From contig JAJFLH010000036.1 of NCBI GenBank assembly GCA_021772775.1, positions 24,800-88,799 on the forward strand: a stretch of DNA of 64,000 bases, written 5' to 3'. Origin of the DNA: Mariprofundus sp. GTDB lineage: Bacteria; Pseudomonadota; Zetaproteobacteria; Mariprofundales; Mariprofundaceae. Shown in pieces: positions 5,003-52,891 of this stretch. A program made the position numbers and the translations under genes. The notes beneath the pieces are model-generated. The model was given only the letters and a program-made list of their open reading frames with translations, was not told where the DNA came from and ran no database searches. Each line of letters opens with the position of its first letter. The first letter of the stretch is position 1.

Positions 5003-5191
5003 ATGATGTTCATTAAGGATCAGAAAAATAACCGCAGGTGTAACTATCAGGCGCATGTCTGGTTCGATAAACACTCCCATTAATGCGGCTGTTTTGCAGT
5101 TAGAGCTGCTGCAGAGCAGTGGGCCCAATGGCTGCATAGAAGAGTGGCAACCGATGATCTGCTAAAAGACGTTCGTCAAAAGTCCGAATAA
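5003..5191 (+). pseudogene. Small gene (62 codons) interrupted by an in-frame TAA at 5081-5083
   Basis: RBS GGAG at 4993-4996. Reads MMFIKDQKNNRRCNYQAHVWFDKHSH*CGCFAVRAAAEQWAQWLHRRVATDDLLKDVRQKSE* in one frame. Confidence 0.5.
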
Positions 5192-35344: not shown

Positions 35345-35730
35345 ACAACATCCTTGCTACAGAGAGCAGCTTTTTTATTGAGAGCAACGTCCAAGGCATT
35401 TAATACTTCAGCCTCTTTCGGCGGTTTATTGATAAAACCAACAGCCCCAAGTTGTAAACATTCATCTCTGATTGTATCTTGAATATCCGCCGTCAATACA
35501 ATGACAGGCACAGGGTGGGCTTGTTCCTTCAATGCTGCCAATACAGATAGACCATCCATCTCAGGCATCACCAAATCAAGAAACACAACGTCTGGAGCAC
35601 CTTGCTTAATCTGATTCATACATTCGATGCCATTAACGGCTTCAGTAATGTTATGGCCACCAGACTTCAGAATACTGCATGTCCTACGTCTTAGAAAACT
35701 TGAATCATCCGTCACTAAAATATTGGCCAT
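35341..35730 (-). CDS. CheY-like single-domain response regulator
   Basis: ILVTDDS, FLDLVMPEMDG, LTAD and INKP motifs. Confidence 0.92.
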   Translation of the reverse strand: MANILVTDDSSFLRRRTCSILKSGGHNITEAVNGIECMNQIKQGAPDVVFLDLVMPEMDGLSVLAALKEQAHPVPVIVLTADIQDTIRDECLQLGAVGFINKPPKEAEVLNALDVALNKKAALCSKDVV

Positions 35731-38076: not shown

Positions 38077-38998
38077 GTGATCCGACGAGATCAGCATAAG
38101 CATCCATATCATTCTGTTCGAGATATTCGGACATGCCATCGAGTAGTTTCTTACACATCAAGGGATCATAAAAAAGGCCAGTTCCCACACCGATGGCATC
38201 AGCACCAACAATGGCAAATTCGACGGCATCCTTTGCATTGGCAATACCACCCTGCCCCAAAATTGGAATACCATGTTTAGCAGCCACCGCCCGCGTCTGA
38301 TGAATTTTCCACAACGCTACCGGTTTAATCGCAGGGCCAGAGAGACCTCCTGAGACATTATCGATGATCGGTTTTCGACTGTTGATATCGACTGCCATGC
38401 CCACCAATGTATTGATCACGGAGAGACCATCACTGCCCGCCTCAATGACTGCACGTGCAGTTTCTGCAATATCGGCGTTATTTGGAGAGAGCTTGGTAAT
38501 CAGAGGCTTTTTCGTCATCGGACGCATCGCTTCAACTACACGTGCAGCCATGGCCGGATTATTACCAAAATGTACCCCTCCCTCTTTCACATTGGGGCAG
38601 GAGATATTAATTTCAATAGCGGTAACGGGTGAATCATCAAAGATACGTGCCATCTCGGCATACTCTTCAGGACTGGTTCCATTTGCGTTGGCCCAGAACT
38701 GCGTCTCATCATGCGGCAAATTTGGCAGGATGTTATCAATCACATAACGCGCACCGGGGTTTTGCAAACCAATTGCATTGAGCATACCCGAAGGGGTCTC
38801 ATACAGCCTACGCGGTGCATTGCCCATGCGCGGCTCTAATGTCGTGCCTTTGAGGATCACCGCGCCAATATCGCGATTATCCCAACCTTCGATATGGGTG
38901 TACTCCTCACCAAAGCCGACACAGCCAGAGAGTAGTACAAGTGGTGTTTGCAGCTTAAGTCCTGCAAAAGAGACGGAGAGATCTTTATGTAGAGTCAT
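38063..38998 (-). CDS. pyrD: Dihydroorotate dehydrogenase, family 1 catalytic subunit
   Basis: NAIGLQNPG, NISCPNV (catalytic Cys), KLSPN, INT and GGLSGPAIKP motifs. Confidence 0.95.
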   Translation of the reverse strand: MTLHKDLSVSFAGLKLQTPLVLLSGCVGFGEEYTHIEGWDNRDIGAVILKGTTLEPRMGNAPRRLYETPSGMLNAIGLQNPGARYVIDNILPNLPHDETQFWANANGTSPEEYAEMARIFDDSPVTAIEINISCPNVKEGGVHFGNNPAMAARVVEAMRPMTKKPLITKLSPNNADIAETARAVIEAGSDGLSVINTLVGMAVDINSRKPIIDNVSGGLSGPAIKPVALWKIHQTRAVAAKHGIPILGQGGIANAKDAVEFAIVGADAIGVGTGLFYDPLMCKKLLDGMSEYLEQNDMDAYADLVGSLVTK

Positions 38999-39010: not shown

Positions 39011-39096
39011 GCGCCGAAAACAGATTCAGCCTATGATCTTTTTTGTGAAACGATTAACCTCCTCTATGAAGGTAAAAAAGGTGAAATAAATGCTTG

Positions 39097-39114
39097 TGAA
39101 AGTAAATACTCTCA
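39097..39114. promoter_or_regulatory. Candidate TetR-type operator
   Basis: Near-perfect inverted repeat TGA-a-AGTA-aa-TACT-c-TCA, 30 bp upstream of the TetR-domain gene. Confidence 0.45.
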
Positions 39115-39143
39115 TTTTTTATTCGCCTTATGGGTGAATTGAA

Positions 39144-39935
39144 GTGAAAACAAAAATTGCACAAACGCGTTGGAAACAGGTGCTTCGGGCTATCGATGAA
39201 ATCGCTGGCAAGGATCAACTGGCATTTATAACCACCCAGCGTGTATCGAGGCAGTCCGGCATTTCTGACGGTGTTCTGTTTCGTCATTTTTCTACCAAAG
39301 AAGTCATGTTGGCAACCTGGGTAGAGACTCGCGGCGATCAACTGCGCCTTCTGCTTGATGCCATGCCTGCCGGTCGAAGTGGTCTGATCTATCTGCTACA
39401 GCAGCTATTTCAACAAAAAGTCTTATTGAACTTTTTATGCTGCCAGCCAATGGACACACCATATTTACGGCAACTTTTGGACTCGTACCGTCTGCAATTC
39501 AACAGGGTCATACAGACCCGAATTGAGTTAATGAGTTCAACACCCATAGGAGTCACATCGGATGTACTTATCGATCATCTGATGCAATCGATTTATCGTG
39601 CCTGGAACCCCGACAACCCTGAGCGGGACTGGCAAAAGGAGCATCTCATGAATCAATTACCTTGGGAAAAAAACGAGATCAAAGACAACACGTTTCCATC
39701 ACAAGATATTATGCAAAGGCTAGCACTCAATGATAGCGGCTTTGTCTTTGACCCGGTCAATGGCAAGAGCTTCACAGCCAATGAAACAGGCATATATGCG
39801 CTGCGTTTTCTGCAACACAGTAGTGATAGCGAAGCTCTGTTGGTGGCTATTGCACGCGATTTCGAAGTCAGTCAATCCGATGCTGCGCGTGATATCACCG
39901 AGTTCTCCAGCCAACTGCGCAAGTTTCTGCAATGA
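39144..39935 (+). CDS. TetR-family HTH regulator fused to a C-terminal PqqD/RRE-like domain
   Basis: N-terminal TQRVSRQSGISDGVLFRHFSTKE, and C-terminal LALNDSGFVFDPVNGKSFTANETG...ARDFEVSQSDAARDITEF. GTG start. Confidence 0.8.
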   Translation: MKTKIAQTRWKQVLRAIDEIAGKDQLAFITTQRVSRQSGISDGVLFRHFSTKEVMLATWVETRGDQLRLLLDAMPAGRSGLIYLLQQLFQQKVLLNFLCCQPMDTPYLRQLLDSYRLQFNRVIQTRIELMSSTPIGVTSDVLIDHLMQSIYRAWNPDNPERDWQKEHLMNQLPWEKNEIKDNTFPSQDIMQRLALNDSGFVFDPVNGKSFTANETGIYALRFLQHSSDSEALLVAIARDFEVSQSDAARDITEFSSQLRKFLQ

Positions 39936-41035
39936 ATCAAGCATCGGATAAAAAAATAACCATCGCTGTCACCGGCATGAATGCCAAGCCAGATAATCCT
40001 GGCCCCGGTCTTGCCGTAGCGCGTTGTTTGCGTCTGGCACACGGCGATCAAGTGCGTATCATAGGTTTGGGTTATGACGTACTCGATGCCGGTTTGTATT
40101 TGGATGATATCTGTGATGCCGCCTATCTACTGCCCTACCCTTCGGCCGGTGAGCAGCAGCTGATGGAGCGTATGGATTATATTCAGCAACAAGAGTCGAT
40201 TGATGTACTTATTCCTTGTCTGGATGCTGAGCTATTAAGTTTTAGTCGCCTGCATCACGAATTTGAACATCTGGGCATTCGTATGCTCATTCCTGATGTC
40301 AGCCAGTTGCGTGATCGCAATAAAGATCGATTAGGGGAACTAGCAAGAAATGCCGGCATCCGATACCCGGAGACAAAAAACATCACCAGCGCCAATTTCT
40401 TTTATCGCTGCCATGATGACAACTGGAGCTATCCGATGGTGGTCAAAGGTATCTTTTACGATGCCACTATTGTGCATAACGCTGATGAAGGGGCCGAAGC
40501 ATTTCGAAACATTGCCGCCAGCTGGGGATATCCGGTTTTGGTGCAACGTTATGTGGAAGGCCATGAGGTGAACCTGACTGCCATTGGAGATGGCAAAGGT
40601 GAACTGCTTGGGGCTGTCATGATGCGCAAACAGGCCGTCACCGATAAAGGTAAAGCCTGGTCATGTGTCACTATTGAGGATCAGCGATTGGAGAGTGATG
40701 CGCTGAAACTGGTGCAGGCACTGCAGTGGGCAGGCCCTTTGGAAGTGGAAATGCTCAAGGAGTCAGACGGACAATACTTGCTGATTGAAATCAACCCCCG
40801 CTTCCCTGCCTGGATTTATCTTGCAGCTGAGGCAGGCAGCAATCTACCAGCGGGTTTAGTGGATTTGATCATGAACAAACAGAGTTTATTTGAGCCCCCC
40901 AAAACAGGCATGATGATGATTCGTTACGCGCAAGAGACCGTCATTGATTTGAGTACCTTCGAAGCCATGGCCATGCATGGCCGTTATATAGCAGATGTGA
41001 ACAGAGAAAATGGGCAGGAGCTAAATTATGAATGA
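39932..41035 (+). CDS. ATP-grasp-domain protein (amide ligase-like)
   Basis: IDVLIPCLDAEL, YPMVVKG, LVQRYVEGHE, GPLEVEM and LIEINPRF motifs. Confidence 0.9.
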   Translation: MNQASDKKITIAVTGMNAKPDNPGPGLAVARCLRLAHGDQVRIIGLGYDVLDAGLYLDDICDAAYLLPYPSAGEQQLMERMDYIQQQESIDVLIPCLDAELLSFSRLHHEFEHLGIRMLIPDVSQLRDRNKDRLGELARNAGIRYPETKNITSANFFYRCHDDNWSYPMVVKGIFYDATIVHNADEGAEAFRNIAASWGYPVLVQRYVEGHEVNLTAIGDGKGELLGAVMMRKQAVTDKGKAWSCVTIEDQRLESDALKLVQALQWAGPLEVEMLKESDGQYLLIEINPRFPAWIYLAAEAGSNLPAGLVDLIMNKQSLFEPPKTGMMMIRYAQETVIDLSTFEAMAMHGRYIADVNRENGQELNYE

Positions 41036-42434
41036 TGCAACGCATGAAATAAGTGAAAAAAAGAGATGGAGCAAACCCACGCTAACACCGCACCGCATCG
41101 GTTCGTTAAACAAGTTTGGCAGTGTCAGCGGTGGTCATTATCAGGATAGCTTTGAAGGTGTTCCCATTGCATCCCTCTTAGAAGAGTACGGTTCACCGCT
41201 ATTCGTTCTGTCGGAACAACGTCTGCGTAATAATGTGCGCAAACTTCTGCGCGCCTTTGAAACGCGCTATGGCAATGTCATCTACAGCTGGTCCTATAAA
41301 ACTAACTATCTGGCAGCTGTCTGCAGCACCCTGCATCAGGAAGGCGCATGGGCCGAAGTAGTTTCAGCATTCGAATATGAAAAAGCCCGCCAGCTTGGCA
41401 TGCCTGCAGAAAAAATCCTCTTTAATGGCCCGCACAAAGAGCGTCCCATCCTTGAGCGCGTGGTTGCAGAAGGTGCACGTATTCATATCGATCATCTCGA
41501 TGAACTTTATCTATTGGAAGATGTTGCCAAAGCGGCAGGCAAACAAGTTGATGTCACCATGCGTCTCAATTTCGACACAGGATTCACCGAACCATGGAGT
41601 CGTTTCGGTTTTAATATCGAATCAGGTCAGGCCCTCGATGCAGCCCGCATTCTCGGTGATAGCAAATATCTCAACCTGTGTGGTCTGCACAGTCATCTGG
41701 GCACATTTATTCTCGATCCTCGCGCTTATGGTGTACAAGTCCGAATCATGTGTGCTTTTATGGATAAGGTAGAAGTACTAACTGGCTGCACAATCGAAAG
41801 CATCGATATTGGTGGCGGTTTTGCCTCCATGAACTCCTTGCAAGGCACCTATTTGCCACCGGAACAGGTAGTACCAAGCATGGATCAGTATGCCGAAACG
41901 ATCTGCACTGCACTGAATGATGCTACCCGCGAACGTGATCTGCAGGGCAAGGGCAGACCTCGCCTTATTTTGGAAAGCGGCAGAGCCGTTGTTGATGATG
42001 CTGAAATTCTGGTCTCATCTGTCGTCGCCAATAAACGCATGCCCGATGGCAGACGTTCGGTTGTCATTGATGCAGGTGTGAATCTGCTGTTTACCGGGTT
42101 TTGGTACAATCATCAGGTCACACCGACGCGCCAACTCGAAGGCGTGCCAGAAGACACCGTGCTCTACGGCCCCTTATGTATGAATATCGATATCATGCGT
42201 GCATCGGTACTACTGCCACCACTAAATGTCAGTGACTCCATTATTTTTAGTAATGTGGGCGCTTATAATAACACCCAATGGATGCAGTTTATTGAATACC
42301 GCCCCAATGTGGTGATGGTGCATGCCGGCAATCAGGTCTCGATTGTGAGAACTGCAGAAGATCTGCATGTGATGACCGAACAGGAGAGCGTTCCTGCTCA
42401 TCTCTGCTCGGTTGAACCACAGCAGGGCGATTAA
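41028..42434 (+). CDS. PLP-dependent fold-III decarboxylase (diaminopimelate/ornithine decarboxylase family) with N-terminal extension
   Basis: YSWSYKTNY (PLP Lys), FNGP, SRFG, GLHSHLG, DIGGGF, ESGR, GPLC and NVGAY motifs. Confidence 0.9.
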   Translation: MNDATHEISEKKRWSKPTLTPHRIGSLNKFGSVSGGHYQDSFEGVPIASLLEEYGSPLFVLSEQRLRNNVRKLLRAFETRYGNVIYSWSYKTNYLAAVCSTLHQEGAWAEVVSAFEYEKARQLGMPAEKILFNGPHKERPILERVVAEGARIHIDHLDELYLLEDVAKAAGKQVDVTMRLNFDTGFTEPWSRFGFNIESGQALDAARILGDSKYLNLCGLHSHLGTFILDPRAYGVQVRIMCAFMDKVEVLTGCTIESIDIGGGFASMNSLQGTYLPPEQVVPSMDQYAETICTALNDATRERDLQGKGRPRLILESGRAVVDDAEILVSSVVANKRMPDGRRSVVIDAGVNLLFTGFWYNHQVTPTRQLEGVPEDTVLYGPLCMNIDIMRASVLLPPLNVSDSIIFSNVGAYNNTQWMQFIEYRPNVVMVHAGNQVSIVRTAEDLHVMTEQESVPAHLCSVEPQQGD

Positions 42435-42436
42435 GC

Positions 42437-44647
42437 TTGCTCTTCACGCCACTGCAAAACCAGCTGAAAGCCTCTGTGACAAAAACAGCCACAGGCCTGT
42501 TCAGAGCCTATGGGGCAATTCTTTTTGCTGAGAAGCCTTGGATTGGTAGCCTCTTTTTGCTTGCCACCTTCTGGTTTCCCAATGCTGGTTTTGCAGGGCT
42601 ACTGGCTGCAATAACGGGTATGTTAACGGCCCGACTATTGAAATTCAGGAATCTGGAAAGCGGTCTGCATGTATACAACAGCCTGCTGGTCGGCCTATCA
42701 CTTGGGGCATACTACACCCTCGATATTCATCTGGCTGTGCTGATTGTATTGGGTGCAGTACTGGCAGTCTTCGCTACCGTTGCCATGGCTGATATAGCAT
42801 GGCGCCTGGGCCGATTGCCGGTCTTAAGCCTGCCTTTTGTGATCGTTGCCCTGACGGTAACACTGGCAGCACACAGCTATGGCACATTAAGCCGTTATCT
42901 GGTGCCACTGGTTCCCAATGAGGGATTGATTTCACCCTTTATAGATCAGCTCCTTACAGCACTCGGTTCGGCTTTTTTCACACCCCATCCACTGGCTGGA
43001 CTGCTACTGTTTACAGGGCTATTGATCTCATCACGCTATCTGGCTCTGCTGGCCGTCGCAGGATTTTTATGCGGCTTTTCGGCCTATGCATTCCTCTCCG
43101 GCAGTCCACATCCCGATCTGGTGGCATGGAATGGCTTTAATTTTATTCTCGTGGCTATGGCACTCGGTGGTCTATTTACCGTACCCAGTTTGCCAACCTT
43201 TCTATTGGCCATGGTAGGTGCAGTTATTGCTGCGCTTGTCACCTCTGCCTCTGAAACGTTTATGCTGGTTTACGGCCTACCGGTGATGGCCCTACCCTTT
43301 TTAATTACCACACTGACTATTCTTCTTGCGCTTACCCACAGGCCAGCCTCTGATTCTTTACAGCTTACTTTGGATGCACCGACGCTTCCAGAAAAAAGTG
43401 CCGAACGAGCACGTCTGGCTATGGTTCGACATGGTGAATTTAACAGTATTCCTGTGCTAGCTCCGTTTTATGGTCGTTGGGAGGTTTATCAGGGCTTTAA
43501 TGGAAAACATACACATCAAGCGCCATGGCAACACGCACTCGACTTTTACATTGTTGAAGATGAACAGAGCTATCATACCGATGGTGTGAACTTGGTGGAT
43601 TATTACTGTTTTGGTCTACCGGTACTTTCTCCGGTTGGTGGCTATGTTGTAAAAACACTGGATAGCCTACCAGACAATCCTCCCGGCCAGGTTGATTTGG
43701 AAAACAACTGGGGCAATCATGTAGTGATCCGTATGCCTAATGGCCTCTATGCCCTGCTCGCACATCTAAAACAGGGCAGTGTGTGTGTAAAAACAGGGGC
43801 ATATCTGCAACCCGGGCAACAGCTTGCTGAATGCGGCAGTTCTGGCCGCTCCCCTCAGCCGCATCTGCATCTGCATATTCAATGGGGTGAAGCGCTTGGC
43901 TCAGCCACCCACCCTTTCCACTTAACCACAGTATTACATCAATCCAATGATCATAGTTCAACAGACTCCCCATCAAACCACACGACTCACGCAGACTTCA
44001 AACTGTTTTCCCGTCCCACTGAGGGAGAGCGTATCATGATGCCCAAAGTTGACTTGGCACTGGTCGAAAGTTTGAGATTAAGTGTGGGCAGGAAATTTTG
44101 TTATCAGGTCACACATGGCAATAGATCAGAAAAAAGAGAGCTGTTGGTCACCCTCAATTTAGCGGGGCAGTTACGCCTGACTGCAGATTCAGGTGCCAGT
44201 GCTGCATTCACTTCACAAGATCATCTGCTGGCATTTTATGATCGCCAGGGGCCTAAAGATGTATTTTTAGATACATGGTTACTGGCGCTCGGTTTGATGC
44301 CATTAACGGAAGGGGAATTAAACTGGAACGATCAACCTTCGATGCAGCTGCTACCCATGAGCTGGAAACAGAACTGGCTGGGTAAACTATTACGCCCATT
44401 GGGCGGTGGCATCGACAGCCGTTATGAGCGTCAATGGGATGGTAAATATTGGCAACAATCGGCCCAGCACAGCTTATCTCTTAGTTTAGGGCAACAGATC
44501 AAAGCGCAGTCATCAGTAAGTATTGAACCCCGCATGGGATGCAAACGCATTTCGATCAATAGTGCAGCAGGAAACCTTGAGGCCACACTGCTGGAAGTAG
44601 GGCAAAAAGCAGATGCCGGTATTCCAGCATGGAAAATTAAGGCATGA
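42437..44647 (+). CDS. Urea-transporter (UT)-family membrane domain fused to an M23-like peptidase domain and an unknown C-terminal domain
   Basis: UT repeats LPVLSLPF and LPVMALPF, plus YNSLLVG and GFNFILV. M23 motifs PVLSP, NWGNHVVI, AHLKQGS and SGRSPQPHLH. TTG start. Confidence 0.85.
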   Translation: MLFTPLQNQLKASVTKTATGLFRAYGAILFAEKPWIGSLFLLATFWFPNAGFAGLLAAITGMLTARLLKFRNLESGLHVYNSLLVGLSLGAYYTLDIHLAVLIVLGAVLAVFATVAMADIAWRLGRLPVLSLPFVIVALTVTLAAHSYGTLSRYLVPLVPNEGLISPFIDQLLTALGSAFFTPHPLAGLLLFTGLLISSRYLALLAVAGFLCGFSAYAFLSGSPHPDLVAWNGFNFILVAMALGGLFTVPSLPTFLLAMVGAVIAALVTSASETFMLVYGLPVMALPFLITTLTILLALTHRPASDSLQLTLDAPTLPEKSAERARLAMVRHGEFNSIPVLAPFYGRWEVYQGFNGKHTHQAPWQHALDFYIVEDEQSYHTDGVNLVDYYCFGLPVLSPVGGYVVKTLDSLPDNPPGQVDLENNWGNHVVIRMPNGLYALLAHLKQGSVCVKTGAYLQPGQQLAECGSSGRSPQPHLHLHIQWGEALGSATHPFHLTTVLHQSNDHSSTDSPSNHTTHADFKLFSRPTEGERIMMPKVDLALVESLRLSVGRKFCYQVTHGNRSEKRELLVTLNLAGQLRLTADSGASAAFTSQDHLLAFYDRQGPKDVFLDTWLLALGLMPLTEGELNWNDQPSMQLLPMSWKQNWLGKLLRPLGGGIDSRYERQWDGKYWQQSAQHSLSLSLGQQIKAQSSVSIEPRMGCKRISINSAAGNLEATLLEVGQKADAGIPAWKIKA

Positions 44648-44689
44648 ACAATACGATGAATTTCAAAAAAATGAAAATTGGAGGATAAT

Positions 44690-45592
44690 ATGAATATACA
44701 ACGGCACATGGTTTTGATGGCCTTTATCGCCAGCCTGTTCTCTGTTCAGCATACAGCCATGGCAGAAGAGAGTGACTGGACACTGAAAACAGATATTCAA
44801 GCCATCTATGGCAGTTACAGCGGTTCTCTTTCGCGCAAATCCCTTACCGGCGGCGGCCTGATTCTTAATGCGGATTATCTTGATCTGGGCGGTTTTTCAT
44901 TGGGTGCGAATTACGCCCAACTCGCATTCAGAAATGTCACCAATGATATCAAACAACAATCCTATTACGGAAGCTTGCACTACAACGCCTACCTCGATGC
45001 CATTCCCGGCCCGCTGACGCTGCGTTTGGATGGGCATGGTATAAATAATAATGACGCCAGTGGAAACACCGACAATGTGCGTGTCATTGCGCCACAAATA
45101 TCTTTTTTGAATTATGACAAAAGCTTTTATGCTGATCTCGGCTATGCCTATTCAACCTATCAGAACAACCTCAAAGTACATCAATTCACACCCACACTGG
45201 GCTTTGGCTTTAATGCATTGGCCGACTGGATACGCATACGCGGCTACTTCATTGATCCATCCAACGCATTACGTGCCCAAAACAAAAATAGCACCACCGC
45301 TGTAGAAGCCAAATGGACACATTGGTTTGATCCCGGTTCATGGCATAAACTAGATAACATGCAAATAGCGGGACTGGTAGGCGAAAGAATTTACGCTGTT
45401 GATAACGATGCAGCCGCTGTTTACAACCTGACAGACATTCAGCGTGGCTCCGTCTCTGTCGCTTTACAATGGAAGTTAACAGAACAGCTCAGTCTAATGC
45501 TGGTCGGAGGAAATGAACGTTATTTGAACAACACAGTTTCTGATGCCTACAGCAATCGTTATGGTTACCTTAATCTATCCACACAATGGTAA
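44690..45592 (+). CDS. Outer-membrane beta-barrel protein of unknown family
   Basis: Signal peptide (TAMA/EE), alternating beta-strand pattern and C-terminal YLNLSTQW. RBS GGAGG before ATG at 44690. Confidence 0.8.
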   Translation: MNIQRHMVLMAFIASLFSVQHTAMAEESDWTLKTDIQAIYGSYSGSLSRKSLTGGGLILNADYLDLGGFSLGANYAQLAFRNVTNDIKQQSYYGSLHYNAYLDAIPGPLTLRLDGHGINNNDASGNTDNVRVIAPQISFLNYDKSFYADLGYAYSTYQNNLKVHQFTPTLGFGFNALADWIRIRGYFIDPSNALRAQNKNSTTAVEAKWTHWFDPGSWHKLDNMQIAGLVGERIYAVDNDAAAVYNLTDIQRGSVSVALQWKLTEQLSLMLVGGNERYLNNTVSDAYSNRYGYLNLSTQW

Positions 45593-45615
45593 TGTTCAAT
45601 GCAAAGGAGAGCATC

Positions 45616-46236
45616 ATGTTAAAGTTTATATTGCTTCCAATCACATCAATTATTGTTGTGCTGATCAGTTTCACCACCACCGTTTACAGTGCTGAAATCA
45701 AAAGTCCTTGGAGTACCTCTTACACTTTAGAGGCCAATGGCGAATATGAAAAAGCCGCCTCAGTCATCTATCAATTTATAGACAGAGGCGCTGAAAATGA
45801 ATTTGCTCTGATACGCTATGGATGGCTCAATTATCTGCAAGGCAACTTCAATGACTCCATTCAGGCCTACCAACGGGCACTTGATCGCAACAATCGCTCT
45901 GTAGATGCACGGTTAGGCATTGCGCTTCCTCTTATGGCTCAGCGACGCTGGAGCAGTGCAGTGCGTTATTTGAAACAGGTCATAGGGCACTCCCCTCTCA
46001 ATTATACAGCCCATATCCGTTTGATGATCTGCGAAGAAGGCTTGCGCAAATGGGAGACTCTGGAAAAACATGCCAAAGAAGTCAGCATCCACTATCCCAC
46101 CGACACCTTAGCTCTGGTTTATCTTGCCCGTGCACATGCATGGCAGGGCGACAAACAAAAAGCCTATGCCGCATATAAACGCGTGCTTGTACGATACCCT
46201 GAACATCTGGAGGCTATCCGTTATTTAAACCCATAA
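45616..46236 (+). CDS. Secreted tetratricopeptide-repeat protein
   Basis: Signal peptide and TPR patterns (GWLNYLQGNFNDSIQAYQRAL, LARAHAWQGDKQKAYAAYKRVL). RBS AAGGAG. Confidence 0.85.
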   Translation: MLKFILLPITSIIVVLISFTTTVYSAEIKSPWSTSYTLEANGEYEKAASVIYQFIDRGAENEFALIRYGWLNYLQGNFNDSIQAYQRALDRNNRSVDARLGIALPLMAQRRWSSAVRYLKQVIGHSPLNYTAHIRLMICEEGLRKWETLEKHAKEVSIHYPTDTLALVYLARAHAWQGDKQKAYAAYKRVLVRYPEHLEAIRYLNP

Positions 46237-46270
46237 ACACAGATTCCAGGCTAGGGAGTTACAATCCAGG

Positions 46271-48979
46271 ATGCATGATAGACAAGGTGTGAGCGACATA
46301 AAAATACAGCGCGGCATGCGTTGGCGACTAATGCTTGGCATGGTCGGCATGATTGTGACCATGGTTGTTCTGTTAACCGTGTTACAGATCTCTGCACAAA
46401 AGGATAGTCTGAATAGCGCGCTTGCCTCACATACTTTTTTTCTTGAAGAGCAGCTGCATAAGAAAGCTGAAAAGGCTAGCAGCCAGATGTCAGGTCATAT
46501 CGAACGACTTATTTCAACCTATCGCCTTACTCTGGCCAATGAGTTTATTCGTAATGTCATCCGGGATATTGATGATTTGAGTTATGTCATATTGATGGAG
46601 GGAGGTGCTCCAAAGATAGCCATCGGCAGTGACCTTGTGGATGCCGAGTTACGTAAACATATTCTATCCGGTGACATTTCAGGTTTAGCGGCAAAACAAA
46701 CAGAAAAAATGCATCATGATTTTATTTTCGCAGATCATGGTTTCATGGAAAACGTAGTACCAATCATGCGGCATCAGGAGCAATGGGGGGTATTACGCCT
46801 TGGTTTTTCACGCGATGAATTGAATAACAATTTGGCATCTTCGCAGCTACGCATTCATCAAGAGATCAAAGATGCCTTATTCAAAACCTCGTTAACGTCG
46901 TTGATCTTTCTCATACTGGGGGCATTAACGGTCTATTATTTTGCCCGCCGCTGGACTGATCCCATTCAAAAGCTGGTGCATTTCTCCAACCGACTCGCCA
47001 GTGGTGATTTTTCTGCCACAGCCCATATCAGTACACGCCGTGATGATGAGATTGGTCTATTGGTTGTATCTCTGGAAGATATGGCAGCCTCCCTCAAACA
47101 GTCGTATGCTCAACTGGAAGAGCACAGTCATACACTCGAAGAGAAAGTAGAAAAACGCACCCATGAGTTAGCCGAAGCCCGTGATAAAGCCCTGGCTGCA
47201 ACACAAACAAAGAGTGAATTCCTGGCCAATATGTCGCATGAGATTCGCACCCCGATGAATGCAATCATAGGTATGGCACATCTGGCGCAGGATATGGCCA
47301 CAGCAGCTCCCCAGCGCCAGTATTTAAATAAGATTCTCACCGCTTCAGAGAACTTATTAAAAATCATCAATGATATTCTTGATTTCTCTAAAGTCGAAGC
47401 GGGTAAACTGGTATTGGAAGCCACAGACTTTCAGCTACAAGAGACGCTGAATCATGTTGAAAGCATCGCAAGTGTCCAGGCACATCAGAAAGGTCTCGAC
47501 TTTGCCTTTGACTCTCCAGCTGATTTACCTGTATTGCATGGTGATTCATTGCGTTTGGGGCAAATTTTACTCAACCTGACCACCAATGCGGTGAAGTTTA
47601 CAGCCTCAGGACATGTGCGTATCACGGTCGAAGTGGTTGAAAAAAACGAATCAACTATCGATCTTCATTTCAGCATCTCCGATTCTGGCATAGGCATGGC
47701 TGAAGAGCAGATGTCACATCTGTTTGAAGCCTTTACACAGGCCGATGCTTCGACCACGCGCAATTATGGCGGCACAGGATTGGGGCTCGCCATCTGCAAA
47801 CAACTGGTTGACATGATGCAGGGCAAAATCGTCGTTGAGAGCACGCCGAATCAAGGTAGTTGTTTCCATGTAAACATACAATTCGGCTTAGGCAATCCAC
47901 TCTTTATAGCTACAAAAACACCATCACCCCAAACCATGCAGTCGCTGCAAGGAACACGCTTGTTATTGGTTGAAGATTATGAAATAAACCAGCAGGTCGC
48001 AGAAGGGTTGTTATCCAAAGCAGGTGTAAGTCTGCACATCGTCGATAACGGAAAAAAGGCTGTTGATGCCGTTAAGAGCGAGGTATTTGATGGTGTTCTG
48101 ATGGATATGCAGATGCCTGTCATGGGTGGCATTGAAGCCACCCGCCTCATTCGTGCCGATGGGCGTTTCAATGAGCTTCCGATCATCGCCATGACCGCCA
48201 ATGCCATGCCCGAAGATCGACAAATGTGCATCGAAGCAGGCATGAATGATCATCTCACCAAACCCATTCATCCAGACGCCCTCTACAACACCTTGTCACG
48301 CTGGATCACAATTTCAGCACCAGCCATCACTGCAGAACCTTTACCCATGAAGAGCCCAAAGACCAATGATGATATCGGTTTTTCAGCACTGCGTGGCATT
48401 GATATCTCAGATGGTTTGCAACGGGTTGCGGGTGACCAACAGTTGTATGCGGCTATTTTATGTAAATTTCGTCATTCACAAGCTGATAGTTTGCAGAATA
48501 TGCAAGCCGCAACCGTAGCAAGTGATTTTGAACAGGCGGCATCTATAGCGCATGCCTTAATAGGTTTAGCTGGCAATATTGGAGCCAAAGAGCTCGCAGC
48601 ACATATCCGCACATTGGAATTTTCATTTACAAACGGTAAAGCTATTGATCTGCCAACATGGCAAGCTGCAGAGCAGCAGCTCTCATACATTATCGACAGC
48701 ATAGAACCCCTATGCGAAACAATCGCTACAACTAAAAAAACAGCTCCAGCTACAGATCATGCAGCAGCCAAACAGCTCATCACTCAGATGAGAAGCTTAT
48801 TAGAAGAGTCTGATGGCGATGCTGTTGATCTACTCGATGAACTCAGCGCAACTCTGGGAGATCATGCAACGAATCAGCATATTTCAATGCTCAGGCAGCA
48901 TCTCTCCGGCTATGACTTCGACGCAGCACTGGAAGATCTATCTGCCATATCACAACTGAACACCAATGCAGAAGAATAA
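46271..48979 (+). CDS. Membrane hybrid histidine kinase: periplasmic sensor, HAMP, HisKA, HATPase, REC, Hpt
   Basis: Two TMs, FLANMSHEIRTPMNAII, NLTTNAVKFT, YGGTGLGL, LMDMQMP and Hpt motif AHALIGLAGNIGA. Start uncertain. Confidence 0.92.
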   Translation: MHDRQGVSDIKIQRGMRWRLMLGMVGMIVTMVVLLTVLQISAQKDSLNSALASHTFFLEEQLHKKAEKASSQMSGHIERLISTYRLTLANEFIRNVIRDIDDLSYVILMEGGAPKIAIGSDLVDAELRKHILSGDISGLAAKQTEKMHHDFIFADHGFMENVVPIMRHQEQWGVLRLGFSRDELNNNLASSQLRIHQEIKDALFKTSLTSLIFLILGALTVYYFARRWTDPIQKLVHFSNRLASGDFSATAHISTRRDDEIGLLVVSLEDMAASLKQSYAQLEEHSHTLEEKVEKRTHELAEARDKALAATQTKSEFLANMSHEIRTPMNAIIGMAHLAQDMATAAPQRQYLNKILTASENLLKIINDILDFSKVEAGKLVLEATDFQLQETLNHVESIASVQAHQKGLDFAFDSPADLPVLHGDSLRLGQILLNLTTNAVKFTASGHVRITVEVVEKNESTIDLHFSISDSGIGMAEEQMSHLFEAFTQADASTTRNYGGTGLGLAICKQLVDMMQGKIVVESTPNQGSCFHVNIQFGLGNPLFIATKTPSPQTMQSLQGTRLLLVEDYEINQQVAEGLLSKAGVSLHIVDNGKKAVDAVKSEVFDGVLMDMQMPVMGGIEATRLIRADGRFNELPIIAMTANAMPEDRQMCIEAGMNDHLTKPIHPDALYNTLSRWITISAPAITAEPLPMKSPKTNDDIGFSALRGIDISDGLQRVAGDQQLYAAILCKFRHSQADSLQNMQAATVASDFEQAASIAHALIGLAGNIGAKELAAHIRTLEFSFTNGKAIDLPTWQAAEQQLSYIIDSIEPLCETIATTKKTAPATDHAAAKQLITQMRSLLEESDGDAVDLLDELSATLGDHATNQHISMLRQHLSGYDFDAALEDLSAISQLNTNAEE

Positions 48980-49010: not shown

Positions 49011-49048
49011 TTTACTATTACTGAAACATTGCATAGGTTCGATTCATG
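49011..49048 (+). promoter_or_regulatory. Sigma70-like promoter ending at the start codon (leaderless candidate)
   Basis: TTTACT, 17 bp, TAGGTT, 6 nt, then ATG(49046). No Shine-Dalgarno sequence. Confidence 0.55.
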
Positions 49049-49315
49049 TCTGAAGTACAAACTCAAAAAAACAATCCTCTGCACGGCATTACCCTGGAGA
49101 AGATGGTCACCACTCTGGTTGAATATTATGGCTGGGGTGAACTGGGGATCCTTGTCAAAGTCCGCTGTTTCAATAACGACCCATCTGTGAAGTCCAGCCT
49201 GAAGTTTCTGCGCAAAACCCCCTGGGCACGCGCAAAAGTGGAAGAACTGTATCTCGAAATGCTGAGAGAAAAGGCCGCCGACGAAAACAAATCGCCATGG
49301 CCAAACAGAGAGTAA
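49046..49315 (+). CDS. VF530/DUF2132-family small protein
   Basis: NPLHGITLE...YGWGEL...[26 protein letters not shown]. Confidence 0.92.
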
Positions 49316-49494: not shown

Positions 49495-49866
49495 ATGAGA
49501 AACCCATTACTATTTTTTGTAGAACTAATGCAACAACCGCTATGGATACCTCTATGGGTATCGGCTCTGATGATGGTCAATATGGCCAGTCTCTTCTTCT
49601 GGCATGAAGTGTTGGCACAAATTATTTTCATCACATTTATGGCATCGGCAATGATCATGATGCTGCTTTATTCACATTTTGGTTTTGAGAAAATACTGGG
49701 GCTAGGCCATATCCTGTGGATCCCTCTGTTGATTTATATATTTATTCAGATCCCAGAAGCTGAACAAGCCTTCCGGCACTATCTAATCGTACTATCTGCT
49801 TTCATCTCAATCTCATTGCTATTTGATGCCATGGATACCTTCAAATATTTCAAAAAGAACGGATAA
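49495..49866 (+). CDS. Hypothetical 4-TM membrane protein
   Basis: Four hydrophobic segments, including GFEKILGLGHILWIPL. RBS GAGG upstream. Confidence 0.7.
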   Translation: MRNPLLFFVELMQQPLWIPLWVSALMMVNMASLFFWHEVLAQIIFITFMASAMIMMLLYSHFGFEKILGLGHILWIPLLIYIFIQIPEAEQAFRHYLIVLSAFISISLLFDAMDTFKYFKKNG

Positions 49867-49927: not shown

Positions 49928-52795
49928 TCACGCATCAAGCTGTTCTCTGATCATTTGACTTAATTTTACGATATTATAGGGCTTAGAAAGAATCAGGGTT
50001 TTATCTGCAGGCATTTCACCCTTCAATGTTTCATCTTTATCATAGCCGGTTGCAAAAATCACTTTCGCTTCAGGGCTAACTATCTTGATGCGTTCAAAAG
50101 CTTTCAGGCCCCCCACTCTGGGCATAACAACATCCATAATAATCAGCGCAATATCGTCCTGATGCTGAGTGAATGTATCAATCGCCTCTAGGCCATCAAT
50201 AGCCACCAACACCTTATATCCTAAATTCTCTAGTACCTCTCGGCTGGTCTTACGGATCTCAGCATTATCATCAACAACCAGTATCAATTCACCATGACCA
50301 GGCAGTGCGTTTACGCTACCATCCGCTATCAATTCGATCTTGTGCTCCTCCAACAGCGGAAGATAGATATGAAAAGTAGTTCCTACCCCCTGAGTGCTCT
50401 CCATTTCGAGGATTCCATCGTGACTTTGCACCGCCCCATAGGCCATGGAAAGCCCAAGCCCCGTCCCAACTCCAATCCCCTTGGTGGTATAAAAGGGTTC
50501 AAAAATGTGCTCTTTGTCAGCACTGCTTATGCCGGAACCATTATCACTGACAATCAGATGAGCGAATAGGCTGCCACTCATATCAGGATGTTTATCCATA
50601 AACTCCTGATCCCCTTCAAACTCTTCAAGCTTCATCATGATGACGGGATCAGATACATTTTCGACAGCATCACGTGCATTGTTTAACAGATTCATCAGCA
50701 CCTGTTGAAGCTGAGTAGCATCACCTCTTACAATAAGCTCTTCAGCACAAAATTCACTCTGCGTATGAATGTTCTCAGGAATACTTGATGTATTCAGTTT
50801 GGATGCCTCTTTAATAAATGAGGTTAAACCGAAAGGTTTCATCTCAACCACACCTTTTCGGGCAAATGTCAGCAGTTGCTTGATCATCTCAGCAGCGCGA
50901 AAGCTTAAAGCAGACACACTATCCAGTTTTTCCACTACATCAGGAAAGCCTGCGACCTTTTTCTTAGCCAGATAGAGATTACCAGTCATACCCGCCAGCA
51001 TATTATTGAAATCATGGGCGATGCCACCAACCAGTGTTCCAAGCGCCTCCATTTTTTGAGCCTGACGAAACTTCTCTTCCAGGGATTCATGCATTGTCAT
51101 GTCCTGTTGAATACCCACATAGTGCGTAATCTGCTCATCTTCATTAAAAATGGGCGAAATTGTCATCAAAGCTGGATATTGTGAACCATCCTTGCGTCGA
51201 TCAACAACGGCACTATGCCAGACCTCTCCTCTGGAGATCGTACGCCAAAGGCTCTTATAAAACTCTTTACTTTGATTGCCACTTTTAAGAATTCTCGGAT
51301 TCTTGCCCAGAACTTCTTCAGGCAAATAACCGGTTATTTTTGTGAATGAAGAGTTCACATATTCAATAGTGCCCTCTTTATTCGTAATCATGACTGACTC
51401 TCCAGCTTGTTCAACGGCCTGAGACAGTTTACGCATCTCCATTTCTCTCTGAGTTCGGGACAATTCATTACCAATCCATGAGGCCATAAGTTGAAGCGCA
51501 TCAATATCAACATCTTCAAATTTTCTTTTCATCGGAGCCGGACTAGAAAAATTCAGGGTTCCAAAAACTTGCCCCTGAACAATAATTGGCGTTCCGATAT
51601 AGGCTTCGAGTCCAAAAGCCTTGTAGGCTGGGTGTATTCTTATCTCGGATTCTTTTACATGCTCAAAACCAACAGGGCCATTGGCCTTCATGGTGATTGC
51701 ACAGTAAGTATTGCCCAACTCAAAATGATCGCCTTCATTCAGCGCTATCTCAGCAGGACAGTGCCTGTATACAACCTCGTAATCATCCTTGACGATTTGA
51801 GACATAATACCAATTTCCAGATGAAATCGATTGCAGCCTAACTCCAGTAATTTATGAACTTTCTCCTCTAAATTGTAATGTGACTCAATCGATAACTGGT
51901 AAAGTGTACGGATAACGTTTTCGCTATCATGGAGCTCGGCTGTTCTCTCATCTACAGCACGTCGAAGTGTTACACTCCATATAAAAACAACGGCAAACAA
52001 CACAAACAGAGCCAAGGCAAGCATGAGGACTGACGGCCCATACTTCACAAACCAGCTATCTGGTTTAATCATCCATTGATTAAAAAGTTCGTCATAACGG
52101 CCAGAAGCTCTTAATTTGACCAATTCACTATCCAGCAGTGATATCATCGCACTATTGCCCTTTATTGCTGTGAAACAGAAGTCTTGCGGCCAAATATTCA
52201 CTTCTGCCAATTCAACATTTGTCAAATTATGCTGTTTAATAAAATAGAGTCCTGGTTGTGTGGCGCTAAAAAATGCAGCGGCCTTGCCTGAGTTCAGTTT
52301 AATGAAACCATCCTGTTTATTTTTAACAATAAGGCGCTCAAAGTCATTGCGATCAGATAGTTTTTCCAGCGCAATATCGTGTTGCTGTAAAATGACAATA
52401 GCGCCGGAGATTGAGTCTAAGCCTTCAATACCTGCTTTGTATCTGTTTCGAAACAGTGATTGATCAATACCACTATGCGGTTCAGAAAACTCATATTTAC
52501 TCACTCGATCAGGCGTACGAATCATGTTGATCAGATCAACTTCGCCGCTTTCAAGGCCTTTGACAGCATCAGGCCAGCTCATAGGTATAAATGTGAACCT
52601 GATTCCAGCAGTGGCTTCAATTTCCCGCAGAAGATCAGGAAGAAATCCTTTGATCTTGCCGTCGGAGTCTACAAACTCATAAGGGGCATATTCTGCATCA
52701 ATTGCCACCTTGATTTCTAATTGTTCTGCAGCTGAAACAGTAGATGAGGTTAGTACCATACATAATAGAAGAAAACATATTTTTGCCATAGTCAT
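49928..52795 (-). CDS. Hybrid histidine kinase: periplasmic solute-binding (SBP_bac_3) domain, TM, GAF, PAS, HisKA, HATPase, REC
   Basis: [35 protein letters not shown] and IIMDVVMP motifs. Start uncertain (52843, 52795 or 52789). Confidence 0.9.
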   Translation of the reverse strand: MTMAKICFLLLCMVLTSSTVSAAEQLEIKVAIDAEYAPYEFVDSDGKIKGFLPDLLREIEATAGIRFTFIPMSWPDAVKGLESGEVDLINMIRTPDRVSKYEFSEPHSGIDQSLFRNRYKAGIEGLDSISGAIVILQQHDIALEKLSDRNDFERLIVKNKQDGFIKLNSGKAAAFFSATQPGLYFIKQHNLTNVELAEVNIWPQDFCFTAIKGNSAMISLLDSELVKLRASGRYDELFNQWMIKPDSWFVKYGPSVLMLALALFVLFAVVFIWSVTLRRAVDERTAELHDSENVIRTLYQLSIESHYNLEEKVHKLLELGCNRFHLEIGIMSQIVKDDYEVVYRHCPAEIALNEGDHFELGNTYCAITMKANGPVGFEHVKESEIRIHPAYKAFGLEAYIGTPIIVQGQVFGTLNFSSPAPMKRKFEDVDIDALQLMASWIGNELSRTQREMEMRKLSQAVEQAGESVMITNKEGTIEYVNSSFTKITGYLPEEVLGKNPRILKSGNQSKEFYKSLWRTISRGEVWHSAVVDRRKDGSQYPALMTISPIFNEDEQITHYVGIQQDMTMHESLEEKFRQAQKMEALGTLVGGIAHDFNNMLAGMTGNLYLAKKKVAGFPDVVEKLDSVSALSFRAAEMIKQLLTFARKGVVEMKPFGLTSFIKEASKLNTSSIPENIHTQSEFCAEELIVRGDATQLQQVLMNLLNNARDAVENVSDPVIMMKLEEFEGDQEFMDKHPDMSGSLFAHLIVSDNGSGISSADKEHIFEPFYTTKGIGVGTGLGLSMAYGAVQSHDGILEMESTQGVGTTFHIYLPLLEEHKIELIADGSVNALPGHGELILVVDDNAEIRKTSREVLENLGYKVLVAIDGLEAIDTFTQHQDDIALIIMDVVMPRVGGLKAFERIKIVSPEAKVIFATGYDKDETLKGEMPADKTLILSKPYNIVKLSQMIREQLDA

Positions 52796-52891
52796 GGCAG
52801 CTAAAGCAGCAAGTTTCAGGCCATTCCCTACGTTCGGACTCAATCGCAGTTATTTGCCCCGATTTCTCAAACGAATGAGATCAATATTTCG

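Follow-up and report, generated by a model that had tools for sequence, protein, structure and literature searches.

A conserved gene cassette of Mariprofundus with an ATP-grasp ligase, a PLP decarboxylase and a peptidase-fused pore of the urea-transporter fold

Organization and distribution of the cassette

The stretch analyzed here, 64,000 nucleotides of the Mariprofundus sp. contig JAJFLH010000036.1 (assembly GCA_021772775.1, positions 24,800 to 88,799; hereafter the window), carries at positions 39144-48979 seven consecutive genes encoding a TetR-PqqD fusion protein with a RiPP recognition element (RRE; RiPP, ribosomally produced and post-translationally modified peptide) (g1), an ATP-grasp ligase (g2), a pyridoxal phosphate (PLP) decarboxylase (g3), a pore of the urea-transporter (UT) fold fused to an M23 peptidase domain (g4), an outer-membrane barrel (g5), a tetratricopeptide repeat (TPR) protein (g6) and a hybrid histidine kinase (g7) ( Table 1 ). 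All seven genes lie on the same strand with gaps or overlaps of about 50 bp or less, as described by the original prediction, which had been made from the letters of the window alone; the open reading frames (ORFs) coincide exactly with the genes it had delimited, and in the ORF list the successive junctions from g1 to g7 measure -4, -8, +2, +30, -7 and +34 nt. Every domain assignment of that prediction was verified, by Pfam and NCBIfam and, for the barrel, by AlphaFold2 modelling and Foldseek. Consensus scans recovered no internal terminator or promoter between g1 and g7 above shuffled expectation. The window sequence is present solely in DNA runs from biofilm and microbial-mat metagenomes, and no RNA run contains it.

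Table 1. Coordinates of the cassette genes, their domains and related features in other loci.
Feature	Locus	Coordinates	Strand	Description
g1	window	39144-39935	+	TetR core fused to PqqD/RRE (Pfam, NCBIfam)
g2	window	39932-41035	+	ATP-grasp carboxylate-amine ligase, carbamoyl-phosphate synthetase-like PRK12767/ATPgrasp_Ter group (Pfam, NCBIfam)
g3	window	41028-42434	+	fold-III (alanine-racemase-fold) PLP decarboxylase, FslC/SbnH/BtrK/MccE/diaminopimelate decarboxylase (DAPDC) clade
g4	window	42437-44647	+	UT-fold pore, M23 domain and new beta-rich C-terminal domain
g4 pore	window	42437-43336 (residues 1-300)	+	UT fold
g4 M23 domain	window	43454-43936 (residues ~340-500)	+	predicted cytoplasmic
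g4 C-terminal domain	window	43982-44644 (residues 516-736)	+	new, beta-rich, conserved
g5	window	44678-45592 (as listed)	+	outer-membrane 14-stranded beta-barrel with signal peptide
g6	window	45586-46236	+	periplasmic TPR protein with signal peptide
g7	window	46271-48979	+	hybrid histidine kinase: periplasmic sensor, HAMP, HisKA, HATPase, REC, Hpt
Putative TetR operator	window	39096-39115		20-bp imperfect palindrome GTGAAAGTAAATACTCTCAT, ideal GTGAAAGTA-AA-TACTTTCAC (9-2-9)
TolC-family OEP gene	L070	11233-12654		
TolC-family OEP gene	L071	6974-7711		
TolC-family OEP gene	L072	3043-4431		
UT-sirtuin	L086	11541-13229		
UT-sirtuin	L089	11541-13256		
UT-sirtuin-GNAT	L085	7233-9344		
UT-sirtuin-GNAT	L090	11695-13761		

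The distribution of these genes was scanned in one genome per GTDB species and the best 79 loci were compared gene by gene, their neighbours being called by tblastn of the seven window proteins. The UT-M23 fusion is encoded in at least 314 species genomes, and more than 1000 full-length homologs were recovered, the closest of them in Zetaproteobacteria (Mariprofundus, Ghiorsea). The PqqD, ATP-grasp and decarboxylase genes are colinear upstream of the fusion in all loci with enough flank (56/56), and barrel and TPR genes both follow it downstream in 56 of 67. The best loci belong to Zetaproteobacteria, Magnetococcales, Rhodospirillales, Burkholderiales, Nitrospirae, Desulfobulbaceae and many Gammaproteobacteria (Methylococcales, Halieaceae, Thiotrichaceae, Thiohalomonadaceae and Ectothiorhodospiraceae); the carriers include Congregibacter variabilis IMCC43200 (Halieaceae), the genome of which is complete. 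No other neighbour family recurs at the compared loci except generic histidine kinases, and the genes immediately downstream vary by lineage. Since the six genes g1-g6 remain together in differing genomic contexts, they rather than all seven make up the conserved unit, and it is nearly certain that they work as one.

Co-occurrence across genomes therefore bears out the predicted operon as a real conserved unit for its first six genes and sets the seventh apart. A full-length ortholog of the kinase g7 is found only in the four closest Zetaproteobacteria (L004, L007, L010 and L065) and its sensor domain nowhere else; judged from gene context, g7 is a lineage-specific neighbour outside the conserved cassette. 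The proposal that this kinase senses the product of the operon finds no comparative support in so narrow a distribution, and it was rejected.

Some metagenome-assembled genomes hold two cassettes of the window type (L033/L040, L049/L054 and L081/L082). One of these copies, L054, is devoid of barrel and TPR genes and is followed by PD40 and acyltransferase genes. No fused UT-M23 homolog was found on plasmids (0 among 72,556), where UT or M23 genes occur only separately. An anti-phage defence function was also considered and rejected, as g1-g6 match no PADLOC defence model. In Methylococcales (L002, also L031, L042, L048 and L068) the cassette adjoins two tandem genes for 98-aa proteins (3178-3474 and 3532-3828 in L002), a gene for a C39-peptidase-domain protein and one for a SPOR-domain protein (4302-5030 and 5191-7050 in L002). 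This group may represent a lineage-specific bacteriocin-like set that is not conserved with the cassette.

Sister cassettes were found through the genome context of distant ATP-grasp relatives. The window type, designated type A, also occurs in Bacteroidota (L087) and Myxococcota (L088), where the pore protein shares about 30% identity and where one of the two proteins encoded between the UT-M23 and TPR genes seems, on sequence inspection, to combine TPR and barrel. Type B, found in Rokubacteria (L086) and Nitrospinota (L089), consists in order of genes for a secreted TPR protein of ~455 aa, PqqD, a double ATP-grasp, a decarboxylase and a UT-sirtuin fusion. Type C (L085 and Rokubacteria L090) presents a TPR protein of ~860-906 aa, a free or fused PqqD, an ATP-grasp, a second divergent ATP-grasp, a decarboxylase and a UT-sirtuin-GNAT fusion. 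One Rokubacteria genome, GCA_016188005.1, holds both type B and type C. The sirtuin of the sister cassettes is canonical, with the full GAGxS...PDxR, QNVDGLH, HG and CxxC...CxxC signature. All types thus share an invariant core of a TPR protein, PqqD, one or two ATP-grasps, a decarboxylase and a UT-like pore; only the cytoplasmic enzyme carried by the pore varies, and each version of it handles amide or N-acyl-amine bonds.

Pore fusion, enzymes and outer-membrane components

The g4 product matches both the UT (PF03253, 177 bits) and the Peptidase_M23 (PF01551, 46 bits) families, and its AlphaFold2 model, built from 54 sequences, has a confidence (pLDDT) of 91. In Foldseek searches the pore aligns with dvUT (3K3F) and UT-B (4EZC) at a TM score of ~0.8, and the M23 fold matches DipM, Csd, lysostaphin and EnvC. 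The C-terminal domain (residues 516-736) returned no PDB match at E<=10 in a profile search, and Foldseek results for the whole model were dominated by UT and M23. Homologs of g4 are named 'urea transporter' in databases, yet against the urea_trans_yut model (TIGR03441) g4 scores 109 bits, with a cutoff of 275. The selectivity filter was compared by aligning the 54 sequences with dvUT, whose numbering is used here for the outer site (So), the central constriction (Sm) and the inner site (Si). The filter frame is kept (L84, L238 and F181 in 54/54 each, L130 in 53/54). The Sm threonines T130 and T294, which are reported to be identical in dvUT, UT-B and UT-A2 (PMC4357013), are replaced by serine in 52/54 and by alanine in 50/54, respectively. 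At So, E187 is a serine in 46/54, at Si, Q24 is alanine, serine or asparagine in 47/54, and nearly all filter changes go to smaller or less polar residues. By this alignment g4 keeps the urea-channel fold without the urea filter and fails the functional signature of the UT family.

Five residues of the M23 domain, H360, D369, H443, H476 and H478, are invariant among the 54 sequences, and its first motif reads H358-x-H360...D369 instead of the canonical HxxxD. Among free M23 proteins the closest relatives, at 35-42% identity, are anchored in the membrane and come from Thermus and haloarchaea; they share the HxH...D motif, and two of them are encoded on plasmids of Thermus thermophilus (L083, 6635-7594) and Halocatena marina (L084, 6581-7654). 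In UT proteins both termini are intracellular. The N-terminus of g4 and the linker after its last helix are rich in lysine and arginine, with a single arginine in the loops of the opposite side. This positive-inside pattern, together with the fusion of sirtuin and GNAT, which need NAD+ and acetyl-CoA, at the same position of the pore in the sister cassettes, makes it highly probable that the M23 domain faces the cytoplasm. Such a location would rule out a role on murein and, next to ligase and decarboxylase, would position an enzyme that cleaves amides at the inner opening of the pore.

The ligase g2 matches ATPgrasp_Ter with 39.6 bits, is 48-89% identical across type A loci and bears the database name 'carbamoyl-phosphate synthase large subunit'. 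A search of the PDB with a 30-sequence g2 profile returned 2pn1 first and then carbamoyl-phosphate synthetase and biotin carboxylases; only weak matches were obtained for Ddl, VanA and PylC, and RimK, LysX and graspetide ligases were absent among the relatives found by this profile. A HMMER pass over 1.84 billion representatives yielded 207 relatives at E<=1e-30, including many tandem double ATP-grasps of ~710 aa, and in the sister cassettes the ATP-grasp is duplicated in tandem or joined by a second paralog. Two natural fusions were encountered, one of PqqD with the ATP-grasp (P0323) and one of the ATP-grasp with the decarboxylase (P0297), indicating that PqqD, ligase and decarboxylase act in one process.

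The decarboxylase g3 matches Orn_Arg_deC_N and Orn_DAP_Arg_deC in Pfam. Its nearest solved structure is FslC/FigC (7KH2, 8e-51), followed by LysA (7e-37) and BtrK (4e-20), and its scores stay below the cutoffs of both the lysA model TIGR01048 (202.2 against 297.9 bits) and the FslC model NF041039 (207 against 500 bits). The catalytic set is intact, K91, GGGF, ESGR and C384 aligning with K63, G237-239, R290 and C354 of FigC, and both the PLP lysine K91 and C384 are present in 66/66 orthologs. FigC, SbnH, AcsE, MccE and BtrK fall into the same clade as DAPDC, these decarboxylases are not linked to polyamine synthesis, and the members other than DAPDC act on amino acids previously conjugated through their side chain (PMC7857480).

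The specificity residues of FigC and DAPDC described in the same work (PMC7857480) were mapped onto g3, and their conservation was followed over the 66 orthologs. FigC T327, Y331 and M355 correspond to identical residues in g3 (T356, Y360 and M385) and T330 to W359, while the citrate contacts H357, R387 and N389 are replaced by I387, Q417 and M419. In the orthologs T356, W359, Y360, M385 and Q417 are invariant, I387 is found in 65/66 and position 419 is methionine or leucine. In DAPDC the distal carboxylate and amine of diaminopimelate (DAP) are bound by R343 of the specificity helix and by an acidic residue beside the catalytic cysteine (PMC7857480). In the alignment with 1TWI, g3 shows 'CMNID' where the latter has 'CESSD', and 'NLLFTGFWY' where it has 'NDMMRPAMY', so that the DAP arginine and the acidic residue are both gone. 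The possibility that g3 is simply the LysA of the cell, which the original prediction had raised against itself, was rejected on three counts: a score of 202 against 298 bits, with FslC as the nearest relative, the replacement of the DAP-binding residues, and the conservation of these replacements in the 66 orthologs. No gene for an IucA/IucC synthetase of the NRPS-independent siderophore (NIS) type was seen near the cassette in any locus examined. The near-invariant pocket suggests that every cassette uses the same substrate, and its composition points to one with a free alpha-amino acid end and a neutral distal part that is neither citrate-like nor basic.

Ahead of its catalytic domain g3 has an N-terminal tail that is absent from LysA and FslC and contains the motif W14-x-K-P-T-L...G25...K29-F-G (nt 41067-41120). 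Among 66 type A sequences W14 is conserved in 66, K16 in 61, P17 in 66, leucine or isoleucine at position 19 in 62, G25 in 64 and K29 in 65. The pattern [YW]xxPx[LIVM] occurs in 64/66 tails, against a shuffle expectation of 1.4 and 0-1 occurrences in the other cassette proteins. All three types, A, B and C, keep the spacing [YW]xxPx[LI]x5Gx3K across phyla, as does the fused P0297, with a universally conserved lysine 15 residues past the W/Y of the motif. PqqD-type B1 proteins bind the YxxPxL motif of lasso leaders. This motif is a conserved feature of lasso-peptide leaders (PMC10368454).

In the g1 product a TetR-type DNA-binding region and TetR core span residues 1-190 (TetR_N 21.9 bits, just under the 24-bit cutoff) and the PqqD/RRE domain spans residues 196-260 (nt 39729-39923; PF05402, 32.4 bits against a cutoff of 23.4), with the lasso-type chaperone as its best PqqD subfamily in NCBIfam. 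The earlier description of g1 as an RRE regulator held for the RRE, present in 56/56 loci; the regulator part turned out to be a secondary fusion, the TetR portion being present in 29 of 66 loci and PqqD being free, at roughly 85-145 aa, in the other 37. Docking of the RRE on the decarboxylase tail, which would hold ligase and decarboxylase together, is possible, at somewhat less than even odds.

A precursor peptide was sought by clustering small ORFs around 80 loci, those of 20-130 aa over a distance of 3 kb and those of 10-90 aa over 700 bp. No conserved precursor ORF emerged at these 80 loci, either within 700 bp (>=10 aa) or within 3 kb (>=20 aa); the clusters that did recur were shadow ORFs and artefacts of the operator DNA motif, and the overlapping or abutting genes leave no room for such an ORF inside the cassette.

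Neither Pfam nor NCBIfam models match the barrel protein g5, the 41 members of its family are likewise without a Pfam family, and in databases the family is named 'hypothetical'. An AlphaFold2 model based on the alignment of 41 homologs (pLDDT 93) shows a signal helix and 14 beta strands, and the best Foldseek matches are the 14-stranded porins OmpG and CymA, in agreement with the predicted outer-membrane barrel. The true start of g5 is probably the ATG at 44690. The TPR protein g6 matches TPR_Slam with 22.9 bits, under the 35.2 cutoff; its gene is conserved beside that of the barrel, and in the sister cassettes, too, TPR proteins bearing signal peptides are encoded. A DUF560/Slam identity was considered for the barrel and rejected, none of the 41 members having a DUF560 match or other sequence link. 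Nor did the proposed likeness to the AlgE/PgaA type of conduit stand, apart from the TPR element, since the barrel has 14 strands instead of 16-18 and no synthase is present.

In three genomes (L070, L071 and L072), whose pore protein is ~43% identical, barrel and TPR genes are absent and a TolC-family OEP gene follows the UT-M23 gene on the same strand after 51-85 bp ( Table 1 ). TolC proteins are exit ducts. This replacement suggests that the outer parts serve export and is the best directional evidence at hand; export is accordingly probable, and the earlier statement that the product is moved across both membranes may be regarded as plausible, with the substitution in three loci in favour of its outward direction.

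Proposed pathway and alternative explanations

The combined evidence favours, with a probability of roughly 0.55, a reading in which g1-g6 build, release and export an amide-linked, decarboxylated (amine-bearing) product. The ATP-grasp would use the side chain of an amino acid to couple it to an acceptor, and the decarboxylase would then strip the free alpha-carboxylate to leave a primary amine. Positioned where the pore opens to the cytoplasm, the M23 domain would cleave the amide and free the product, which would cross the widened pore and continue along the TPR/barrel (or TolC) route. In place of a separate precursor peptide, PqqD may dock on the W/YxxPx(L/I) motif of the decarboxylase tail. 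The ligation and decarboxylation steps follow from family chemistry and from the fusions among the cytoplasmic proteins, and the release and export steps from the architecture. Amide formation followed by decarboxylation, as originally proposed, is natural chemistry for these families (PMC7857480). The original prediction as a whole survives as a conserved, LysA-free and uncharacterised amide/amine unit, without its kinase sensing and its polymer-porin likeness; the cytoplasmic M23 domain, the lost urea filter and the absence of a precursor peptide gene were not part of it.

Several points weigh against this pathway. The case for it is drawn wholly from comparative and structural inference. 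ATP-grasp substrates are not readable from sequence, and the nearest solved structures of g2 are an uncharacterised protein and bicarbonate-activating enzymes. The urea-channel pore is narrow, and its widening beyond what small amides require is a prediction from the filter residues. The first metal motif of the M23 domain is non-canonical, with H366 replaced by tyrosine in 9/54 sequences and H360 as the presumed ligand. The TolC-type variant has no recognisable gene for a periplasmic adaptor. Finally, the tail motif may be a structural element of this decarboxylase subfamily, and the sirtuin/GNAT pair could perform reversible lysine acylation, that is, regulation, and not product release.

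A more specific proposal, which must be considered doubtful, is a carrier-tail assembly line of an undescribed kind, in which the tail lysine is loaded, processed and released into the pore. The RRE would bind the leader-like [YW]xxPx[LI]x5Gx3K in the decarboxylase N-terminus, the ATP-grasp would load an amino acid, via its side-chain carboxylate, onto the invariant tail lysine, and the tethered residue would be decarboxylated and, where two ATP-grasps exist, also extended. The pore-fused M23 or sirtuin would cut the N-epsilon-acyl-lysine (isopeptide) bond, and a side-chain-free omega-amino-acyl product or oligoamide would enter the widened pore directly. Sirtuins deacylate the side chains of lysines, and isopeptide-type cross-links are the target of many M23 enzymes. 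Were the tail lysine the site of the cleaved bond, the tail would be a built-in carrier in the manner of LysW or BtrI.

An RRE-dependent RiPP pathway with its precursor encoded elsewhere in the genome is unlikely. PqqD would here bind the leader, the ATP-grasp would add an amino acid or lactam to the peptide, the decarboxylase would trim the added residue in the manner of MccE, and the M23-pore protein, like a peptidase-containing exporter, would cut off the leader during export of the core. PqqD is present in every cassette with the lasso-type chaperone as its best subfamily, the PqqD-ATP-grasp fusion P0323 resembles fusions of RREs to RiPP enzymes, and the decarboxylase shares its clade with MccE of the microcin C pathway. 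A PqqD-like gene in the vicinity of enzymes, regulators and transporters counts as a hallmark of RiPP clusters (PMC7470986). However, 80 loci from many phyla yielded no conserved small ORF, the overlapping or abutting genes leave none hidden within the cassette, the urea-channel-fold pore is much narrower than any known peptide exporter, and the sole leader-like motif that was found sits on the decarboxylase itself.

Also conceivable, though improbable, is that the enzymes mainly control the pore instead of feeding it, reversible lysine acylation switching both an amine-producing decarboxylase and the channel through which a simple amine or small amide is exported. The ATP-grasp or GNAT would acylate the tail lysine or another one, and M23 or sirtuin would de-acylate it. 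GNAT and sirtuin form the classical pair for such a cycle and are both fused to the pore in type C, the universal lysine follows the W/Y of the tail motif at a distance of 15 residues, and the fold of the pore is that of a small-amide channel; type A, however, has neither GNAT nor sirtuin. Moreover, the clade relatives of the decarboxylase act on conjugated and not on free amino acids, its pocket is without acidic residues for basic side chains, and a small amine needs no dedicated barrel/TPR or TolC partner.

The opposite direction of transport, with porin, TPR protein and channel importing a urea-like or peptide-like nitrogen compound for processing by the cytoplasmic enzymes, is decidedly improbable. 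As passive conduits, UT channels and OmpG/CymA-type porins usually work in uptake, catabolic operons are often under TetR repressors, and a distant relationship connects the ATP-grasp with bicarbonate-activating enzymes, for example that of urea carboxylase. Assimilation is nonetheless difficult to reconcile with the TolC-family efflux duct that replaces barrel and TPR in three loci, with the loss of the urea-binding polar residues and threonines, with the lack of linked urease, allophanate hydrolase or other catabolic genes, and with the biosynthetic nature of ATP-grasp ligases and clade-2 decarboxylases.

Highly improbable is peptidoglycan remodelling, in which cell-wall cross-links would be altered jointly by a ligase of the Ddl kind, a LysA-like enzyme that decarboxylates the free D-centre of meso-DAP in stem peptides, and an M23 endopeptidase. 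M23 is a family of murein endopeptidases, LysA is the second-best relative of g3, and weak NCBIfam matches to MepM, ShyA, DipM and Ddl were obtained, yet all murein-enzyme models score far under their cutoffs and the DAP-binding Arg and Glu are absent from g3. The M23 domain is predicted to be cytoplasmic, sirtuin/GNAT occupy the same position in sister cassettes, and the nearest free M23 relatives include proteins of haloarchaea, which have no murein. A chance adjacency of unrelated housekeeping genes is already refuted by the same order and strand in 56/56 and 56/67 loci, from Zetaproteobacteria to Bacteroidota and Myxococcota and in differing contexts, and by the domain fusions that link cassette members.

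Regulation, neighbouring genes and relation to known systems

The palindrome at 39096-39115 is situated ~30 bp upstream of g1, with a -35-like TTGTGA on one side and a -10-like hexamer on the other. It occurs once in the window and had no match in 100 shuffles. A degenerate form of it is found exactly once in each of 24 loci of Zeta- and Gammaproteobacteria (including L029 and L030), always just upstream of the TetR-PqqD gene; the Desulfobulbaceae locus L080 has a variant outside the degenerate pattern. The palindrome is likely to be the TetR operator, and its position at the g1 promoter and upstream of TetR-PqqD genes is consistent with autorepression. In the window genome the TetR-PqqD fusion would repress the operon through this predicted site.

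Two-component systems of differing kinds often adjoin the cassettes, no particular kinase being conserved. These non-orthologous systems include classical HisKA, HisKA_3, LytTR-type and histidine kinase plus sigma-54 activator pairs, examples being found in L009 (12818-14305), L021 (7535-9289), L001 (533-3312), L087 (5734-7668) and L089 (2579-5424). Their recurrence suggests that neighbouring genes exert a recurrent but interchangeable sensory control on the cassette.

The genes that flank the cassette in the window, for dihydroorotate dehydrogenase, a staphylococcal nuclease (SNase) and an M48 peptidase upstream and for VF530 downstream, are unrelated to it. The staphylococcal-nuclease-like ORF as listed (37333-38139) and the dihydroorotate dehydrogenase ORF (38063-38998), both on the - strand, overlap by 77 bp, probably owing to an over-extended start of the former. 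Upstream of the M48 gene (35826-37280), genes for a CheY-like receiver and a CheC/CheX phosphatase overlap by 4 bp (34748-35730, - strand). On the other side, the VF530 gene (49046-49315) is followed by one for a protein of 123 aa that has several hydrophobic stretches and matches no Pfam family (49495-49866, +) and, ~1 kb downstream of the cassette region, by that of a second hybrid sensor kinase (49928-52843, - strand) with a periplasmic solute-binding domain (SBP_bac_3), GAF, PAS, kinase core and receiver.

A module kept by several hundred Gram-negative species likely makes a useful, as yet unnamed product. Its carriers comprise iron-, sulfur- and methane-oxidisers, magnetotactic bacteria, marine Halieaceae, Nitrospirota, Desulfobulbaceae, Bacteroidota, Myxococcota, Rokubacteria and Nitrospinota, and the cultured ones among them (Congregibacter variabilis, Ghiorsea bivora and Mariprofundus sp. 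EBB-1) make direct testing possible. If the proposed pathway is true, it would assign new roles to an enzyme-fused urea-channel fold, to an intracellular M23 peptidase and to an RRE without a precursor peptide gene. It is probably misleading that databases label these proteins 'urea transporter', 'hypothetical protein' or 'carbamoyl-phosphate synthase large subunit'. Tools that mine for RiPPs by way of the RRE will flag these loci, and the presence of the leader-like motif on an enzyme alters how such matches are to be read.

Among characterized systems, those for rhizoferrin (FslA/FslC or FigA/FigC), staphyloferrin B (SbnH) and achromobactin (AcsE) share with the cassette the sequence of side-chain ligation and decarboxylation, as well as a decarboxylase of the same fold-III clade, FslC being the closest solved homolog of g3. 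They employ NIS (IucA/IucC) synthetases, whereas the cassette uses an ATP-grasp and has no linked siderophore receptor or uptake genes, and in g3 I387 and Q417 take the places of H357 and R387, with which FigC binds citrate. BtrJ is the ATP-grasp ligase of the butirosin pathway. The BtrI/BtrJ/BtrK system is alike in pairing an ATP-grasp with the clade-2 PLP decarboxylase BtrK, which acts on glutamate held on an 87-aa carrier (PMC7857480). Butirosin assembly, however, relies on the acyl carrier protein BtrI and a thioester; the cassette is without an acyl carrier protein, its g3 is far nearer to FslC than to BtrK, and the pore, RRE, M23, barrel and TPR components have no counterpart in that pathway. 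In the LysW/LysX system, by which Thermus and archaea make lysine and arginine, an ATP-grasp attaches the substrate to a small carrier through an amide, enzymes modify it in the bound state and a metallopeptidase releases it. LysX is of the RimK type, which is not represented among the g2 relatives found, no LysW-like acidic-tailed protein is encoded in the cassette, and the release enzyme of the latter sits on a membrane pore.

RRE-dependent RiPP systems (lasso peptides, PQQ) have in common with the cassette a PqqD-type RRE, a YxxPxL-like motif and a peptidase fused to an export device. They differ in possessing a precursor gene, the leader-like motif of the cassette being located on an enzyme, and peptidase-containing exporters combine an ABC transporter with C39, unlike the passive channel fold with M23 found here. 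The RRE-Finder paper mentions no ATP-grasp or decarboxylase context. With the UT/SLC14 channels (dvUT, UT-B, UT-A) the pore shares its fold and hydrophobic frame, yet it departs from them in its altered filter, its fused 430-residue enzyme module and the absence of a urease context.

The periplasmic TPR module with an outer-membrane barrel recalls AlgK/AlgE, PgaA, BcsC and Slam/type XI secretion. The Alg, Pga, Bcs and Pel systems need an inner-membrane glycosyl-transferase synthase and a 16-18-strand porin with a TPR scaffold; the cassette has no synthase, and its barrel is OmpG/CymA-like. The Slam barrel does have 14 strands, but DUF560 is not matched in the cassette and the TPR_Slam score of g6 is below cutoff. 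M23 murein endopeptidases (MepM, ShyA, LytM, lysostaphin) agree in fold, HxH and catalytic His; they are periplasmic or extracellular with HxxxD, in contrast to the predicted cytoplasmic domain of g4 with HxH...x8...D. The Zetaproteobacterial stalk-formation (sfz) cluster was considered as well and rejected: the paper describing it mentions neither a UT nor an M23 protein, nor an ATP-grasp, PqqD or decarboxylase, and Sfz4 belongs to the glycosyl hydrolases. A literature search for this gene combination turned up no description of it, and no NCBIfam model for it reaches cutoff, in keeping with the original statement that no characterised pathway corresponds to it. The cassette shares parts of its logic with several of the systems compared, lacks defining features of each and is regarded as a system of a kind not yet described.

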